Assembly: GCA_964362215.1 (NCBI GenBank)
Contig: CAYIDJ010000002.1
Span: 911-64,910 of the forward strand
Length of the DNA stretch: 64,000 bases
Direction of reading: 5' to 3'
Source of the DNA: an uncultured Candidatus Saccharibacteria bacterium
Lineage (GTDB): Bacteria; Patescibacteriota; Minisyncoccia; UBA6257; XYB1-36-10
Positions 4,411 to 63,350 of this stretch are shown piece after piece (position 1 is the stretch's first letter; every line of letters starts with the position of its first letter). A program made the translations under genes and the position numbers. The notes under the pieces are model-generated. The model made no database searches. It was not told where the DNA came from and saw only the letters and a program-made list of their open reading frames with translations.

Positions 4411-4419
4411 TGAAGAGGA

Positions 4420-4447
4420 CTGGATTCCTGCTTTCGCAGGAATGACA
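4420..4447. repeat. REP-like hairpin copy
   Basis: ctggattcctgctttcgcaggaatgaca directly after the STAS gene stop. Confidence 0.8.
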
Positions 4448-4562
4448 CGGAAGTAAAAGATAAATCCCGGAGATGATATCAAAGGGATTTTTTATTTTGG
4501 AAGCGAAGCCTGCCTACGCTCTGTCGAGCTTCGGCGGGGCGAAGTGGTATAATGAAAAGCAA

Positions 4563-5431: not shown

Positions 5432-5536
5432 AGTAAAAGATAATTGTTTGTGAGACACGTGTATTTTCTGGCTGGAAAATCACTCTGATTCGCACCGCCG
5501 TGCTCCGCGCGGTCTCACAAACAATTATCTTTTACT
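5432..5536. repeat. Long hairpin element, family C copy 1 (25-bp perfect inverted repeat, ~55-nt conserved loop)
   Basis: agtaaaagataattgtttgtgagac (5432-5456) is the exact reverse complement of 5512-5536. The loop ends in ctctgattcgcaccgccgtgctccgcgcg, which is shared with 42694-42748. Confidence 0.85.
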
Positions 5537-14913: not shown

Positions 14914-16167
14914 ATGACTTTAAGGAGAATAATAAAAACATCACTGACGGGACTACAGACGAACCGGGGGCGGGCGGCGTTGACTATTTTGGGCATAGTG
15001 ATAGGAATCACGGCGATTATTATCGTGATGGCAGTGGGGCAGTCGGCGCAGAAACTAATTTTAGACCAGATTCAGGGTTTGGGTTCAAAGACGATAGCAA
15101 TTGTGCCCGGTAAACAGCCGGAGGGGCCGTCGGACGCGGCTAATGTGTTTTTAGATTCGCTGAAAGAGCGGGACGTGGAGAGTTTAAACAATAAGGGAAA
15201 TGTGCCTTACGCGGATTCGGTAATGCCGGTAGTGTTCGGAACGGCGCGGACGGGGTATGAGGAGGAGACATATCAGGCGACCGTTTTGGGACTGGGAAGC
15301 GCGACGGAAGATAATATAATAAGTAAGGTTTTTAGCATTGAGACGGATAAGGGAGATATGTTTTCCGCTGATGACGTTAGGTCCAGAACAAGCGTGGTGG
15401 TTATCGGCAGCAAGGTAAAAGAAAAGTTGTTTGGTTTGTCGGACGCGGTAGGAGAAAAAGTAAAAATAAACGGGCGGAATTTTCGGGTGGTGGGAACGTT
15501 GCCATCCAAGGGACAGGTATCGTTTTTCAATTTTGACGAGATGGTGCTAGCGCCATATACGACTGTTCAGCAGTATATTTTGGGGAGAAAATATTTTGAC
15601 CGGGTAATAGTGGTGGCGGGAAACGAGGCGTCAATAGAGCGGACAGTGAATGATATAGAGATTGTTTTGCGCAATAATCATGGCATTACAGACCCCGATA
15701 AAGATGACTTTTTTGTGGAGACGCAGGCGGACTTATTGGACAGAGTATCATCAGTAACGACGATTTTGACGATACTGCTGGCGGCGATCGCGGCAGTGTC
15801 GTTATTGGTGGGCGGGGTGGGAATAATGAATATCATGTTCGTGTCGGTGACGGAGCGGACAAAAGAGATAGGGCTGCGCAAAGCGGTGGGAGCGACGAAC
15901 GCGGACATAATGAAACAGTTTTTGTTTGAGGCGGTGTGGCTGACGCTGATTGGAGGGGTGGTGGGGGTGATTTTAGGAAGCGGGTTGGCGGCAACAGCCA
16001 CTTGGGCGATTGCCGTTTTTTACAATATTGATTTTTCATTTTCGTTTCCGTGGACGGCGGCGGTAATGGGGATAGGAGTGGCGGCGGGAGTAGGACTTAT
16101 CTTCGGGATTTATCCGGCGCGGCAGGCGGCGAGGAAGAGCCCGATTGAGGCATTGAGGTATGAATAA
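14914..16167 (+). CDS. ABC transporter permease, MacB_PCD + FtsX domains
   Basis: 417 aa with an N-terminal TM, a large extracytoplasmic domain, and a C-terminal FtsX-like 3-TM bundle ('ERTKEIGLRKAVGA'). Confidence 0.85.
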   Translation: MTLRRIIKTSLTGLQTNRGRAALTILGIVIGITAIIIVMAVGQSAQKLILDQIQGLGSKTIAIVPGKQPEGPSDAANVFLDSLKERDVESLNNKGNVPYADSVMPVVFGTARTGYEEETYQATVLGLGSATEDNIISKVFSIETDKGDMFSADDVRSRTSVVVIGSKVKEKLFGLSDAVGEKVKINGRNFRVVGTLPSKGQVSFFNFDEMVLAPYTTVQQYILGRKYFDRVIVVAGNEASIERTVNDIEIVLRNNHGITDPDKDDFFVETQADLLDRVSSVTTILTILLAAIAAVSLLVGGVGIMNIMFVSVTERTKEIGLRKAVGATNADIMKQFLFEAVWLTLIGGVVGVILGSGLAATATWAIAVFYNIDFSFSFPWTAAVMGIGVAAGVGLIFGIYPARQAARKSPIEALRYE

Positions 16168-16173
16168 AGCTTG

Positions 16174-16368
16174 CCATACTAAAAAAATTTCTGGATGCTG
16201 GTAATGCGGCTCATAATATACTCTCGCTACCGTCCATCTCCCCAGCGAGGAGATGGACTACGCCTCGCCCTCGCTCGTCCCGACTAAAGTCGGGACACCG
16301 TGCCTGCTCGGGCTCGGATGCGCGCTCGAGTATATTATGAGCCGCATAGTGTATATTTTTTAGTGTGG
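16174..16368. repeat. Nested palindromic element, family B copy 1
   Basis: Outer arms atgcggctcataatatactc (16204-16223) and gagtatattatgagccgcat (16328-16347). Inner hairpins are gtccatctcc/ggagatggac and gtcccgac/gtcgggac. Homologous to 63101-63258. Confidence 0.85.
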
Positions 16369-16463: not shown

Positions 16464-16570
16464 ATAGAAGTCGCTAATGGCAATGGGGAGAATAAACCAC
16501 TCTTTTCTTTCCTACTTTAGGGGAGAGGTTGGATAATAAGGTAGTCCCGAATTACTCGGGACTTTTATTA
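16464..16570 (+). repeat. Family-A right-arm fragment + conserved 3-prime module
   Basis: atagaagtcgctaatggcaatggggagaataaa (compare 22764-22795), then gggagaggttggataataaggtagtcccga-attac-tcgggacttttatta. Confidence 0.7.
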
Positions 16571-16616
16571 TATAAAGAATAATTTAAGAGAAGTAGATGA
16601 AAAAAAGAAAAGCCGC

Positions 16617-22573: not shown

Positions 22574-22590
22574 AAAATATGTTTTGTGAT

Positions 22591-22791
22591 ATTCTCCCCA
22601 TTACCATCGGCTCCGCTATTCGCTTAAAGCGAGTAATATTCACTCCCCTCTAATTTGGCTTATAAAACGGCTGGTTCCCGTTCCTCCCAAGGGGATTTTC
22701 CGACCAGCCGTTTTATAAAAGCCAAATTCTTCGTTGCGTTCATTTATCGCTAATTAAGCTCATAGAAGTCGCCAATGGTAATAGGGAGAAT
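22591..22791. repeat. Nested palindromic element, family A copy 1 (~200 bp)
   Basis: attctccccattaccatcggc (22591-22611) pairs with gccaatggtaatagggagaat (22771-22791). Inner arms ...ggcttataaaacggctggt / accagccgttttataaaagcc also pair. Homologous to 34824-35040. Confidence 0.85.
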
Positions 22792-22810
22792 AATTTACCC
22801 TTTTTATTTG

Positions 22811-22880
22811 GAGAGGGGGTTGGACTTAAGGTAGCCCGCCAAAATTTTTGCTTGCGCAAAAACTTAGGCGGGCTTTTGTT
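22811..22880 (+). terminator. Conserved 3-prime module: GAGAGGGGGTTGGACTTAAGGTAGCCCGCC hairpin + T tract
   Basis: agcccgccaaaatttttg-cttgcg-caaaaacttaggcgggct then tttgtttt. The same module recurs at 8 other sites. Confidence 0.7.
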
Positions 22881-22881
22881 T

Positions 22882-24247: not shown

Positions 24248-24817
24248 TCATTGAGCAGCGGAAATTTCTTCTTTTTCAAGAATCGCTGCTATTTTCTTAA
24301 TACAGGCATAGGCCTTGGGAGAGTGGATGCTGGTAAAGCAAAAGATGTTTTTATATTCTTCCACGGTTGAGGCGAATTCCATGGCCTTCTCCAAGGCCTT
24401 TCTTTCCACCTCGCTGCCGCCTGGAGCTTTCCGGCAGATACCCAGACACTCTTTCACGGTTGAGGCGAATTCCATGGCCTTCTCCAAGGCCTTTTTTTTC
24501 ATCTCGCTGCCGCCTGGAGCTTTCTGGCAGATATCCAGACACTCTTCCACGGTTGAGGCGAATTCCATGGCCTTCTCCAAGGCCTTTTTTTCCACCTCGC
24601 TGCCGCCTGGAGCTTTCCGGCAGATACCCAGACACTCTTCCACGGTTGAGGCGGAGAGAAGTTTCTTCATTATGTCGGTTTCCTCCGGTAATGGCACATC
24701 GAGGGCTGAACAAACTTGGTCTCTTTTGTCTTGACCAAGAATCAGGCACAACCTATCAACTAACACTGAATTGTCCATAACAGAACTCCCTTCACTTTTT
24801 TGGGTTTTAATTAACAC
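24248..24817 (-). CDS. Tandem-repeat protein (31-aa helical repeats ASTVEECLxICxKAPGGSExxKKALEKAMEF)
   Basis: The longest of several open frames over the repeat (189 aa) and the only one with unique N- and C-terminal flanks. It sits between a terminator and a divergent promoter region. Confidence 0.5.
   Translation of the reverse strand: MLIKTQKSEGSSVMDNSVLVDRLCLILGQDKRDQVCSALDVPLPEETDIMKKLLSASTVEECLGICRKAPGGSEVEKKALEKAMEFASTVEECLDICQKAPGGSEMKKKALEKAMEFASTVKECLGICRKAPGGSEVERKALEKAMEFASTVEEYKNIFCFTSIHSPKAYACIKKIAAILEKEEISAAQ
24362..24653. repeat. 93-bp tandem repeat, ~3.1 copies, near-identical
   Basis: cacggttgaggcgaattccatggcc recurs at 24362, 24455, 24548 and 24641, an exact 93-nt (31-codon) period. 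Confidence 0.9.
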
Positions 24818-25955: not shown

Positions 25956-25987
25956 GGCGGGAGGAAAAAATATAAAGTTCAGGCAAT

Positions 25988-26095
25988 ATTCTCCCCATTA
26001 CCACTGGCTCCGCTATTCGCTTAAAGCGGATAATATTCGCTCCAATCCAATTTGGCTTATAAAATGACCGGTTCCCGTTGTTTTATAAGTGGATA
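25988..26095. repeat. Family A left arm only (truncated copy) fused to a half P1 palindrome
   Basis: attctccccattaccactggctccgctattcgcttaaagcgg...ggttcccgtt, then ttttataagtggata. The right arm is missing. Confidence 0.75.
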
Positions 26096-34823: not shown

Positions 34824-35040
34824 TATATTCCCCCACCACCATTCGCTCCGCTACTCGCTCAAAGCGAATAATATTCGCTCCGTTCTAATTTGGCTTATAA
34901 AATGACTGGTTCCCATTCCTCCCTCGATAGAACCTCGGGATTTTCCGACCAGTCATATTTATAGAAGCCAAATTGTTCATTCCGCTCATTTATCGCTTAT
35001 TAAGCTCGTAGAAGTCGCGAATAATGATGGGGAGAATATA
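34824..35040. repeat. Nested palindromic element, family A copy 2
   Basis: tatattcccccaccaccattcgc pairs with gcgaataatgatggggagaatata. Collinear with 22591-22791 throughout. Confidence 0.85.
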
Positions 35041-35055
35041 AACTATTCTTCCTGG

Positions 35056-35125
35056 GGGAGAGGTTGGATGAGAATGTAGCCCGCCAAAATTTTTGCTTAC
35101 GCAAAAACTTAGGCGGGCTTTTGTT
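35056..35125 (+). terminator. Conserved 3-prime module (GGGGAGAGGTTGGATGAGAATGTAGCCCGCC hairpin + T tract)
   Basis: Hairpin agcccgccaaaatttttg-cttacg-caaaaacttaggcgggct (35078-35118), then tttgttt. Confidence 0.7.
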
Positions 35126-35191
35126 TATATGGGAAAATCGGAATTGAAAAAAAACAGCGCCGAGGGTTTGGGTTTTTTTAATGTTAGTTGG

Positions 35192-39081: not shown

Positions 39082-39217
39082 ATTGCTTTTTCCGCTATAT
39101 TTTGCCGGGTACGAACTGGCTCGCTCCAGCGGCGAGCCGTTCTCTGATCTCGCCGGCCGGAAGAACCAAGCCCGGCCGGCTCTGATAGCCCCTCTAAAAT
39201 ATAGCGGGAAAAGCAAT
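39082..39217. repeat. Nested palindromic element, family D
   Basis: attgctttttccgctatatttt (39082-39103) is the reverse complement of aaaatatagcgggaaaagcaat (39196-39217). The interior is GC-rich. Confidence 0.8.
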
Positions 39218-39242
39218 AAAAAAATAAAACAATACTTTTTTA

Positions 39243-39290
39243 GAGGGAGAGTTAGGTAATATAGCGTCCGCCCAAGGCGGATTTTATTTT
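39243..39290 (+). terminator. Conserved 3-prime module (GAGGGAGAGTTAGGTAATATAGCGTCCGCC hairpin + T tract)
   Basis: tccgcc-caa-ggcgga (39267-39281), then ttttattttt. Confidence 0.65.
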
Positions 39291-39345: not shown

Positions 39346-40908
39346 TTAGATATGGAAGACGGGGGCGGTGGGGGGAATAGAGTCGGTTTGAGGGGGGAGA
39401 AGGTAGAAGATGTTTTTGGTTTGGCGGTTTTCGGGTGACCAGGTATCGGTTAAGAATATTACGGTTTGGGCGGGCATGGGGAGGCCGCGGACGTCAACGC
39501 CGCCGGAGTCCACAATGACGTATTTTGGAATGGCGGAGGGAAGGGAGTTTATTTGAGCGGCGAGGTCAACATAGTTTTGGTTGAAGGCGCCGGCGGTTTC
39601 AGGATTTTGTCCCCATTTAAGGAAGTAGGTGTCGTAAGTATTTATAGTAATGGTGGCGAGGAAAATTATGGCAAGAGCAAAGAGAAAACGGCGCTGGCGG
39701 GGGAGAATGGTTTTAAGATGTTCATAAACATAGATACCGCCTAAAGCGGAGAGAATAAAGACGGGCGGAATCATCAGAATAGCGCGGAGGGCGTGGGGAA
39801 GGCCTTCGTTAGAAATTACTACCGGTAAGGCAGAGATAAATAACCAAGAAAATAAAATAATCGGAAGTAACAGCGATGAATTATGGACTGGATTCCCGCT
39901 TTCGCGGGAATGACGGAAGAGTGTATAAAGTGAAATGGGGATACCGATTAAGAACAGTATACCGACGGGCCAGTAGAGCTGGGGCGCGCCAGCAAGGTTG
40001 TGGCGCCAGTTGCCGTCGCCCGCAAAATTAAACATAGCGGCGGTTTTGGAGGTATTTATAACCAGGTCTTTAAGAGGAGAAGCGGAAGAAAAGACAGATA
40101 TTTGGGAGGTACGGCCGAGGAAATCGGCGGGGTTATTTAGGAAATACAGGCCGAGCGGGGCGGCGGTGATGACAGCGCCAATGGTGAAGGCGGCGGCGGC
40201 TTGCCAGAATTGTTTGGAGCGCCAGAAGAAAGGAATAAAGACAAGAAAGAGCAGGGGCATAGCGCGGTAGGCGATGTAAGAATATAAACCGAGGCCAAAT
40301 ATTATCCCACTAAGGACGGCGGGGATGATGAATAGCCGCCACCCGGCAGGTTTCGGCCGCGCCTGTTGGCGAGCGGGGGAAATGGATTTAAGAAAAAAAT
40401 AAAGAGCCCAGATGAGAAAAGCAGGAGCCATAATGGCGCGGAAGCCGACGCGGGAGAAGTTGATGTGCCAAAAGCTCACGGCGAGGAAAAAGGAGGAGAG
40501 AAGAGCAGTAACCTCGCCGCGAGAAATCCTAAATCCTATCCGCCAGCTGGCGGACGAAACTCTAAATAATTCTTTGGTTAGGAAAAATAGTCCCAGAACG
40601 GTTAAGATACCGAAGATAGCGGAAGGGAAGCGGAGCGCCCAGGGTTGGGTGGGGGAGATGCCGGAGTTTTCCAAAGAGCCGAGGAAGGCGGCCTGGATGT
40701 TTATGAAAAGTCCTTCGCGGCCGTTGTTTTCGGGGTAGAAAACTTTGTATCCGCCAGCTGGCGGACTTGTGTGAAGCGCTTCCAGAGCGTTGTTGCCATT
40801 CATGGCCTCGTCCGGATAGAGGCCGGGAGGGGTAGAGGAAAGATTATAAAGCCGGAAGAAGGAGGCAATAGCAATTATAAGAATGAGCCAAACCCAAGTT
40901 TTTTTCAT
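39346..40908 (-). CDS. GT39-family (ArnT/PMT_2-like) glycosyltransferase carrying three in-frame palindromic inserts
   Basis: 520 aa and polytopic. 'LYPDEAMNGNNALEA...FYPENNGREGLFINIQA' is typical of this family. It contains a REP copy (39888-39915) and two 16-bp palindromes. Confidence 0.75.
   Translation of the reverse strand: MKKTWVWLILIIAIASFFRLYNLSSTPPGLYPDEAMNGNNALEALHTSPPAGGYKVFYPENNGREGLFINIQAAFLGSLENSGISPTQPWALRFPSAIFGILTVLGLFFLTKELFRVSSASWRIGFRISRGEVTALLSSFFLAVSFWHINFSRVGFRAIMAPAFLIWALYFFLKSISPARQQARPKPAGWRLFIIPAVLSGIIFGLGLYSYIAYRAMPLLFLVFIPFFWRSKQFWQAAAAFTIGAVITAAPLGLYFLNNPADFLGRTSQISVFSSASPLKDLVINTSKTAAMFNFAGDGNWRHNLAGAPQLYWPVGILFLIGIPISLYTLFRHSRESGNPVHNSSLLLPIILFSWLFISALPVVISNEGLPHALRAILMIPPVFILSALGGIYVYEHLKTILPRQRRFLFALAIIFLATITINTYDTYFLKWGQNPETAGAFNQNYVDLAAQINSLPSAIPKYVIVDSGGVDVRGLPMPAQTVIFLTDTWSPENRQTKNIFYLLPPQTDSIPPTAPVFHI
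39888..39915. repeat. REP-like hairpin inside CDS (encodes RHSRESGNPVH)
   Basis: ctggattcccgctttcgcgggaatgacg matches the intergenic copies at 1895, 4420 and 12488. The reading frame is maintained. Confidence 0.8.
40539..40554. repeat. 16-bp perfect palindrome TCCGCCAGCTGGCGGA inside CDS (read as SASWR)
   Basis: Exact palindrome. A second identical copy lies 211 bp away. Confidence 0.85.
40750..40765. repeat. 16-bp perfect palindrome TCCGCCAGCTGGCGGA inside CDS (read as PPAGG)
   Basis: The same 16-mer as 40539-40554, translated in a different phase of the same gene. Confidence 0.85.
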
Positions 40909-42665: not shown

Positions 42666-42776
42666 CAGAAGCCCAGTTTCCTGTTTGTTGGACACGGATA
42701 TTTTTTTGCTAAAAAATTCCTCTGACTCGCACCGCCGTGCTCCGCGCGGTCCAACAAACAGGAAACTGGGCTTCTC
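42666..42776. repeat. Long hairpin element, family C copy 2 (27-bp perfect stem, conserved loop)
   Basis: agaagcccagtttcctgtttgttggac pairs with gtccaacaaacaggaaactgggcttct. The loop 3-prime half ctctgactcgcaccgccgtgctccgcgcg matches the copy at 5484-5511. Confidence 0.85.
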
Positions 42777-55691: not shown

Positions 55692-55787
55692 ATGATATTA
55701 GAGACCATATTCGGGCTTTCTAAGCGGTTGCGGACAGAGCACTCATTCAACAACAAACAATGGAGGTCACCATTCGCAGCCGCTTAG
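55692..55787 (+). CDS. Candidate 31-aa ORF (MILETIFGLSKRLRTEHSFNNKQWRSPFAAA) embedded in a 19-bp-stem hairpin
   Basis: AGAGGAGGAG SD 5 nt before the ATG. ggctttctaagcggttgcg (55714-55732) pairs with cgcagccgcttagaaagcc (55775-55793), followed by tgattttt. Confidence 0.25.
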   Translation: MILETIFGLSKRLRTEHSFNNKQWRSPFAAA

Positions 55788-55869
55788 AAAGCCTGATTTT
55801 TATTGTGGACAAGAAGGCAGTTTTGGTTTATTTTATTAAGTAATGCTGGTTTTTATCAGCAGACAGTTT

Positions 55870-62866: not shown

Positions 62867-63085
62867 ATGAAAATTTTGGTTAAGGTAAAGGCGAGAGCGA
62901 AGGCGGAGAAGGTGGTGGAGATGGGCGGCTGGTATTTTGAGGTGTGGGTGAAAGAGCCGCCGATTGAGGGGAGAGCGAATGAGGCGGTGGAGAGGGCGCT
63001 GGCGGATTATTTTGGCGTGGCCAAATCCAAAGTGAATATCGTTTCGGGACAGACGAGCCGGAAGAAGGTGGTGGAGATTGGTTAA
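62867..63085 (+). CDS. DUF167 (YggU-like) protein
   Basis: 'VKEPPIEGRANEAVERALADYFGVAKSKVNIVSGQTSRKKVVEI' matches the UPF0235 pattern. Confidence 0.8.
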   Translation: MKILVKVKARAKAEKVVEMGGWYFEVWVKEPPIEGRANEAVERALADYFGVAKSKVNIVSGQTSRKKVVEIG

Positions 63086-63100
63086 GTTAGGAGGATAGAT

Positions 63101-63258
63101 AGCATCTCGTCAACATACTCTCCCTACCGTCCATTCCCCCAGCGAGGGAATGGACTACGCCTCGGTCTCGCTCCCGAGCACTCAAATTAAGAAATACGAG
63201 TGTTCGGACCATGCCCACTCGACCTCGGATGCGCGCTCAAGTATATTGGCGAGATGCT
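63101..63258. repeat. Nested palindromic element, family B copy 2
   Basis: agcatctcgtcaacatactc pairs with aagtatattggcgagatgct. It shares ...atactctccctaccgtccattcccccagcgagggaatggactacgcctcg... and ...ctcggatgcgcgctcaagtatatt with 16174-16368. Confidence 0.85.
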
Positions 63259-63281
63259 TTTTTGATTTACCTATGAACCTT

Positions 63282-63350
63282 GAGGTAAGAGTTAGACATG
63301 GTGTAACCCGCCTATGTTTTACTAAGTAAAACATAGGCGGGTCTTTATTA
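63282..63350 (+). terminator. Conserved 3-prime module (GAGGTAAGAGTTAGACATGGTGTAACCCGCC hairpin + T tract)
   Basis: acccgcctatgtttta-ctaag-taaaacataggcgggt (63306-63342), then ctttatta. Confidence 0.65.

Follow-up and report, generated by a model that had tools for sequence, protein, structure and literature searches.

We found that a nested palindromic repeat, here termed Family B, is a real, lineage-restricted family of dispersed structured elements within a narrow clade of ultra-small groundwater Patescibacteria, and that its members are best explained, at a probability of roughly one in two, as dispersed, cis-acting RNA structures in the 3' untranslated regions (UTRs) of the genes that they follow. 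The window, i.e., the whole 64-kb stretch of DNA that was analyzed, derives from a population of Paceibacteria-like Patescibacteria sampled from groundwater at Hainich (0.1 µm fraction of well H43); proteins of the window recur on ENA contigs of that sample. Each element is about 150 nt in length and forms a long stem around a three-way junction, and the window contains two copies, with cores at 16204-16347 (+) and 63102-63257 (+). A preliminary description had placed these copies at 16174-16368 and 63101-63258, and both were located there. The two sequence blocks it reported as common to them matched exactly at the two sites on the + strand and had no other occurrence in the window (0 matches expected from dinucleotide-preserving shuffles), and a direct-repeat search of the window also recovered the pair. 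The upstream genes were likewise those proposed, encoding a permease with MacB_PCD and FtsX domains (macB-like, copy 1) and a PF02594/DUF167 protein (copy 2). The parts of copy 1 are as follows.

16174..16203 (+): 5' arm of the outermost extra stem (CCAUACUAAAAAA...); the MFE fold pairs 16174-16186 with 16356-16368
16204..16223 (+): 5' arm of the closing stem (P1), 20 nt; 100% complementary to 16328-16347 and covarying between copies
16224..16231 (+): junction strand J1, UCGCUACC (alignments)
16232..16258 (+): hairpin P2 (GUCCAUCUCC / loop CCAGCGA / GGAGAUGGAC) (folds)
16259..16276 (+): J2 (UACG), then the P4 5' strand CCUCGCCCUCGC, then UC; P4 pairs with 16306-16317
16277..16296 (+): apical hairpin P3 (GUCCCGAC UAAA GUCGGGAC) (covariation)
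16297..16327 (+): J3 (ACCGUGCCU), the P4 3' strand GCUCGGGCUCGG and J4 (AUGCGCGCUC); invariant or nearly invariant alignment columns
16328..16347 (+): 3' arm of the closing stem (P1) (complementarity, covariation)
16348..16368 (+): 3' arm of the outermost extra stem (...UUUUUUAGUGUGG) (MFE fold)

Those of copy 2 are as follows.

63102..63120 (+): 5' arm of the closing stem (P1) (fold, model score)
63121..63159 (+): J1 (UCCCUACC), P2 (GUCCAUUCCC / CCAGCGA / GGGAAUGGAC) and J2 (UACG) (alignment)
63160..63228 (+): P4 5' strand (CCUCGGUCUCGC), P3 (CCGAGCACUC...GAGUGUUCGG), J3 and P4 3' strand (ACUCGACCUCGG) (alignment)
63229..63263 (+): J4 (AUGCGCGCUC) and the 3' arm of the closing stem, then UUUUUU (sequence, fold)

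Further copies were recovered outside the window. A pattern scan of metagenomes gave 29 matches, three of which were real: sequences L003 and L007, from the same Hainich samples, carry a copy after secF, and L017, from another sample, carries one after folD, while the rest fell in high-GC coding DNA. Protein-guided look-up added a copy after folD in the Hainich population (L276), a longer contig of the L017 organism that includes its folD copy (L275), and a third organism in which the folD copy is cut by the contig end (L277). The alignment comprised six full copies from five different loci or organisms, with three organisms in total, and model R1 of the family gave 122-181 bits on every full copy (copy 2: 173 bits). 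About 92 kb of the Hainich population (the window, L007, L276, and L003), chosen for holding copies, contained four to five of them. Conversely, Family B was absent after folD orthologues at 63-67% FolD identity (L278-L285) and after macB orthologues at 65-69% identity (L286-L290); these best MacB homologues belonged to Kaiserbacteria and Taylorbacteria-type metagenome-assembled genomes. Among GTDB representative genomes, no match was obtained with a strict pattern and at least 117 with a looser two-block pattern; among the matches listed, none looked like a true copy, and one from Parcubacteria lay inside a coding sequence. Two patterns searched against IMG/VR returned chance matches only, BLAST against plasmids and phages returned no Family B match, and a literature search found nothing relevant on structured repeats of the candidate phyla radiation (CPR). 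The absence from more distant relatives, together with these null collection searches, suggests that Family B is confined to a narrow clade.

One fold fitted all six copies, comprising the closing stem, the three-way junction, P2, P4, and the apical P3. The closing stem was 19-20 bp in length, and exceeded 30 bp with its extension in copy 1 and L007. The copy 1 region folded on the + strand at −93.8 kcal/mol (z = −8.9 vs. shuffles) and the copy 2 region at −64.0 kcal/mol (z = −6.1), and the reverse strands of both folded about equally well. Each copy had previously been taken as self-complementary from end to end, but the idea of a simple palindrome did not hold: because P4, P2, and the conserved junction strands fit one fold across copies, the interior is a branched three-way junction, the strands of which are non-palindromic and highly conserved. 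These single strands (CUCUCGCUACC, CUACGCCUCG, ACCGUGCC, and CUCGGAUGCGCGCU) were almost invariant among the six copies, with J3 being ACCGUGCC and J4 being AUGCGCGCUY in the full fold, and J1 was nearly invariant, with a G-to-C change in the DUF167 copy only. P4 is interrupted by conserved U.C/C.U 2x2 internal loops, the outer of which is invariant. Unconstrained folding of L276 recovered P4 and P3 unaided.

The fold was supported by covariation. It had been suggested that uncompensated arm differences in additional copies would point to decay of a simple duplication; in the six copies, standard pairs occupied 96% of pair cells and 26 of the 46 pairs had changed on both sides, including 10 of 10 in P3, 6 of 10 in P2, and 8 of 18 in the closing stem. 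None of 500 shuffles reached any of five pairing and covariation measures, and slid registers paired in only 31-42%. The double change reported in the inner hairpin (CT/AG in copy 1, TC/GA in copy 2) was real, and the central hairpins of the two window copies were indeed unrelated in sequence. The outer arms, as claimed, differ yet remain complementary; they are not unrelated, however, but homologous with compensated changes (CUCGYCAAYAUMCUC ... GAGKAURUUGRCGAG). Furthermore, GCCC/GGGC of P4 is replaced by GGUC/GACC in copy 2 and L276, and the inner UC/UC loop of P4 has become U-A and C-G in L276. A local GCCC/GGGC hairpin proposed by RNAalifold was rejected, as it is broken in copy 2, whereas the long-range P4 (CCUCGCCCUCGC/GCUCGGGCUCGG) covaries in copy 2 and L276. 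P3 varied in both sequence and length among copies, and that of copy 2 holds a G.U pair. In L276, P2 kept its position and its loop ends (CCAG...CGAG), but its stem sequence was wholly different and a 53-nt two-hairpin insert split the loop; such tolerance of an insert and a stem swap is typical of the variable arms of structured RNAs.

Sequence was constrained as well as structure. Identity between copies was 83-97% in the core (junction strands and P4), 55-79% in the outer stem, and 22-59% in P3. The preliminary description had argued for selection on the folded form rather than on the primary sequence; the first half of this argument is borne out by the pairing data, whereas the second is qualified by the identity of the junction strands and P4. 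Judging from the aligned copies, constraint acts on fold and junction sequence alike. Two further hypotheses were set aside. Bases of the P2 loop (AGCGAG) could form a pseudoknot with CUCGCU, but every position involved is invariant and L276 has a split loop. A small open reading frame does not fit either, since the ATG-initiated frame differs between copies past P3 and L276 lacks the ATG.

Compensatory changes are also common in the hairpins of REPIN mobile DNA (PMC3116915), and covariation alone therefore cannot tell an RNA from a DNA hairpin. Nor do the non-Watson-Crick cells discriminate: the + strand reading has 3 G.U vs. 8 A.C cells, with the A.C cells at helix ends in four of five distinct sites, and these counts have no power for strand assignment. 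An RNA is argued instead from position, after a stop codon and upstream of a terminator, and from conservation that ends at the terminator. At all four loci (macB-like, DUF167, secF, and folD), Family B had the orientation of its upstream gene. The distance from stop codon to stem was 6 nt for folD in three organisms, 6 nt for the outermost stem of copy 1 (macB-like stop codon, 16165-16167), 16 nt for copy 2 (DUF167 stop codon, 63083-63085), and about 25-40 nt for secF. On the same strand, canonical terminators separate from the element were found 50-200 nt 3' of both window copies by a terminator scan, at 16543-16563 and 63306-63342 within the following intervals.

16543..16575 (+): intrinsic terminator following copy 1
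63306..63350 (+): intrinsic terminator following copy 2 (stem of 17 bp, then a T-rich tail)

The former places copy 1 within a 3' UTR. The element itself was rejected as an intrinsic terminator, because a U6 tract follows copy 2 only and none is present after L275, L276, or L007. The elements thus lie between a co-oriented stop codon and a terminator and have covariation support, as is generic for cis-acting 3'-UTR structured RNAs.

The terminators belong to a recurrent module that consists of GGGAGAG(G)UU, roughly 6-10 nt, UAAGGUAG, a GC hairpin, and UUUUAUUU. The module occurs in the window at 16516-16575, 22810-22881, 35055-35126, 39233-39290, and 63285-63350, and elsewhere in L275 (4592-4650), L276 (5718-5775), and L003 (3800-3850). 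Different loci and organisms share the sequence 5' of its hairpin, a conservation that an ordinary terminator would not require.

The folD locus, with syntenic housekeeping neighbors such as glyA-folD, allowed conservation to be followed along the transcript. The FolD proteins of the three organisms are 75-79% identical, with 60-62% identity at third codon positions. Between L275 and L276 (FolD protein 77%, third codon positions 60%), identity was 75% in the element, 75% in the spacer, and 82% in the terminator module, and fell to 46% after the terminator. This conservation, which runs from the stop codon to the terminator and ends there, is the best available argument for a cis role at the RNA level.

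As a cis-acting 3'-UTR RNA, Family B would be co-transcribed with its upstream operon (macB-like, DUF167, secF, and folD so far). The long closing stem would then act as a stable 3' structure that blocks 3'-to-5' exonucleases, and/or would be cut by a double-strand-specific RNase of the RNase III type, for which its length of about 20 bp, equivalent to two helical turns, makes it a plausible substrate. Through either or both of these routes, the half-life of the upstream mRNA would be set. The invariant junction may serve as a docking site for a protein, or may form a tertiary fold, that confers specificity, and the copies would have arisen by occasional duplication followed by vertical inheritance under purifying selection. 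REPs stabilize upstream mRNA against 3' exonucleases, and this is the mechanism that we propose for Family B. Phage lambda sib is another long 3' hairpin located after a coding region, in which cleavage by RNase III controls the stability of the upstream message. The analogy with Family B is functional only: sib is a single-copy phage element without a three-way junction and is not homologous to Family B.

A simple stabilizer does not need an invariant junction, which means that the real function may be more specific than we propose. On a bolder reading, which we regard as quite improbable, the junction would be the active core of a new functional RNA class in CPR bacteria, either a new ribozyme, self-cleaving or processing, through which mRNA 3' ends are matured, or a high-affinity decoy or docking site for RNA polymerase or for a protein specific to the lineage. 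If this were true, the other long-stem three-way-junction repeats of the genome, at 5432-5536, 39082-39217, and 42667-42775 would be divergent superfamily members sharing that activity.

It is also conceivable, although rather unlikely, that Family B is a stand-alone non-coding RNA, cut from the 3' UTR or made from the opposite strand, which acts as a protein sponge, a 6S-type decoy, or a new self-cleaving ribozyme. Invariant junction nucleotides combined with freely varying peripheral helices are the signature of a tertiary core or a specific binding site, and the rod-like shape of 145-200 nt (closing stem, asymmetric central junction, terminal stem) would suit such an RNA, as would conservation over the entire region from stop codon to terminator. 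In addition, the reverse strand was consistently more stable, by 6-12 kcal/mol in six of six copies, and on that strand the 2x2 loops of P4 turn into tandem G.A motifs (−14.0 vs. −9.8 kcal/mol); thermodynamics thus slightly favors the opposite strand, which also speaks against the cis-acting 3'-UTR account. Nevertheless, partial scans and reading of the flanks showed no room for a promoter on the + strand and no consistent promoter or terminator on the − strand. At least four copies, each at a different operon end, would be unusual for a trans-acting housekeeping RNA. Rfam 15, run over the whole window, gave no family at the gathering threshold over Family B. At E ≤ 10, three copies were compared with all families, 6S RNA and ribozymes included: nothing was found on copy 1 or on the L276 copy, and copy 2 gave two overlaps far below threshold (RT-19, 16 bits vs. 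78; ceN49, 12 bits vs. 65). Rfam orphan motifs and 6S RNA do share features with Family B, namely covariation with a conserved junction and a rod of about 150 nt with a central asymmetric loop, but Family B is multi-copy, lies at the 3' ends of different operons, and has a side hairpin in place of an open bubble.

Mobile DNA offers another account, which we consider unlikely. Family B would then be a non-autonomous element of the MITE or REPIN type, with the folded single-stranded DNA read by a transposase or HUH enzyme encoded elsewhere and the structure serving transposition. It is multi-copy and extragenic with long inverted terminal arms, and several further long-stem repeat families exist in the genome. 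Paralogues can be closer than orthologues (core identity 0.97 for secF vs. macB, 0.85 for folD vs. folD), and the split P2 of L276 resembles a nested insertion. Moreover, L003 and L007, contigs from replicate samples, are 99.9% identical over 3763 nt (secD-secF and the element) and diverge exactly inside the 3' arm of the closing stem (L003 3763, L007 2403), with jag-yidC downstream in one and a comF-like gene in the other; L007 keeps the cognate extended stem, whereas the 3' flank of L003 is foreign and bears a terminator module of the typical kind. This divergence reflects either recombination between two copies, rearrangement, or mobility at the element, or else a chimeric assembly at the repeat, and in both cases at least one more copy must exist. 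However, flanks read by eye contained no target-site duplication at any of the five copies, the approximately 45 proteins of the window, all housekeeping, included no transposase, integrase, or RAYT, and no matches were found in plasmids, phages, or IMG/VR. The terminal arms vary with compensation, whereas a transposase site would be conserved in sequence. The same site, 6 nt past the folD stop codon, is occupied in three diverged organisms, the orientation to the upstream gene is strict at four loci (for folD, in all three organisms), and the flanking spacer and terminator are conserved together with the element.

In its proposed mode of action, Family B comes closest to REP/BIME, ERIC, and Correia elements and to 3' retroregulatory hairpins. 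Like REP, BIME, and REPIN sequences, Family B is extragenic and dispersed, lies mostly after gene ends, and forms hairpins with compensatory changes (PMC3116915). Its conserved blocks are not reverse complements and hence do not make up the inverted REP doublet of a REPIN; the blocks are asymmetric, the junction is three-way, and P2 lies on the 5' side only. REPs and REPINs are proteobacterial and associated with RAYTs, whereas the host of Family B belongs to Patescibacteria, its copy number appears low, and one of its copies is orthologous in three diverged organisms. Unlike in a MITE, the outer 12 bp of the arms are only 55-79% identical, with compensation. The MITE-like Correia/NEMIS repeats of Neisseria and ERIC repeats of enterobacteria are 100-150 bp in length, have long inverted arms, and are co-transcribed into long RNA hairpins, whose processing by RNase III or RNase E affects mRNA levels; their terminal repeats are conserved in sequence, their targets are duplicated (TA for Correia), and they are found in either orientation. 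Family B resembles them in size and in its long inverted arms, and by analogy may be co-transcribed and processed, but it has no duplication detectable by eye, arms that are compensated rather than conserved, a fixed orientation, and a branched, invariant core. Integron attC sites are also imperfect palindromes right after an open reading frame, in which structure is more conserved than arm sequence and the terminal structure varies. This assignment was rejected, because no RYYYAAC/GTTRRRY boxes occur at the base (the arms read GCATCTCGTCAAC.../...TTGGCGAGATGC and similar) and there is neither a cassette array nor an integrase, the neighbors being syntenic housekeeping genes.

A non-mobile site acting at the DNA level, such as a cruciform, a BIME-like site for gyrase or a nucleoid protein, or a recombination hot spot at operon ends, is very unlikely. 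The palindromic character with folding on both strands, the position at operon boundaries, and the rearrangement boundary in L003/L007 would agree with such a site, but a cruciform would not need a strongly asymmetric core or a strict orientation relative to the gene, and conservation reaches the terminator across a non-palindromic spacer. Random decay of a duplication with chance complementarity, for which the only point in favor is that the window has just two copies, is effectively excluded by the shuffle expectations for block matches and for double-sided changes and by the conservation of copies across organisms.

The window and its relatives contain several other repeats. An element at 39082..39217 (+), 16 nt past the stop codon of a ychF-like gene (YchF domains), scored 26.7 bits with model R1 and folded (z = −8.8) into a long-stem three-way junction with a 22-bp closing stem; its first hairpin has the loop UCCAGCG, which is the P2 loop motif, and a second GC hairpin is flanked by CUCUGAU. 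The model match is weak, and the element may be a distant relative of Family B. Closing stems of 20-27 bp with multi-hairpin interiors characterize families at 5432-5536, 42667-42775, 22590-22792, 39082-39217, and 55711-55796, most of them a few bases past a stop codon. It may be that operon-end structures of this lineage form a larger superfamily in which Family B is one branch. A second repeat family (5432-5536 and 42667-42775, also L007 6659-6770 and L276 13631-13727) has perfect closing stems of 25-27 bp and a two-hairpin interior of about 55 nt (…CACUCUGAUUCGCACCGCCGUGCUCCGCGCGG…), with one copy 6 nt past a stop codon and another between divergent pyrG and pgk. A third, palindromic family of about 200 nt, with ends TATTCTCCCCATTACCAT.../...ATGGTAATAGGGAGAATA, is present at 22590-22792, 25986-26079, and 34824-35038, after the enolase gene and others, with a right-end fragment of it (16464-16506) in the stretch that separates Family B copy 1 from the terminator of that copy. 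In L286, a different nested palindrome (2696-2812) follows the macB orthologue (65% identity); its interior is unrelated to Family B, and its closing stem begins with CUCGGCCAACA, much like CUCGCCAACA of Family B. A short hairpin repeat of REP-like size, ACUGGAUUCCCGCUUUCRCGGGAAUGAC, is dispersed through the window five times (1894-1966, 4419-4453, 39887-39921, and 48487-48521). The window also encodes a bacterial type A RNase P RNA (47568-48063, 214 bits), in which about 95 nt of AT-rich sequence (~47836-47934) are inserted compared with the Rfam consensus, and three tandem 93-nt units (24357-24653), 94-100% identical, within the − strand open reading frame 24248-24817, which had no Pfam match.

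To our knowledge, hardly any non-coding RNAs or post-transcriptional control elements specific to their lineage have been described in Patescibacteria. Their genomes are tiny, and each conserved intergenic base is costly. Here, a 150-nt element, together with its spacer and terminator, is kept more strictly than synonymous sites and now occurs, through copying, at several housekeeping operon ends. We regard Family B as a 3'-UTR RNA motif or structured extragenic repeat from a phylum with essentially no described elements of this kind, and with a covariance model available, the predictions made here are open to testing with existing groundwater metatranscriptomes. These results suggest either that mRNA 3' ends are under a previously unrecognized layer of control in these uncultured organisms, or that a new partnership of RNA and protein exists in them.
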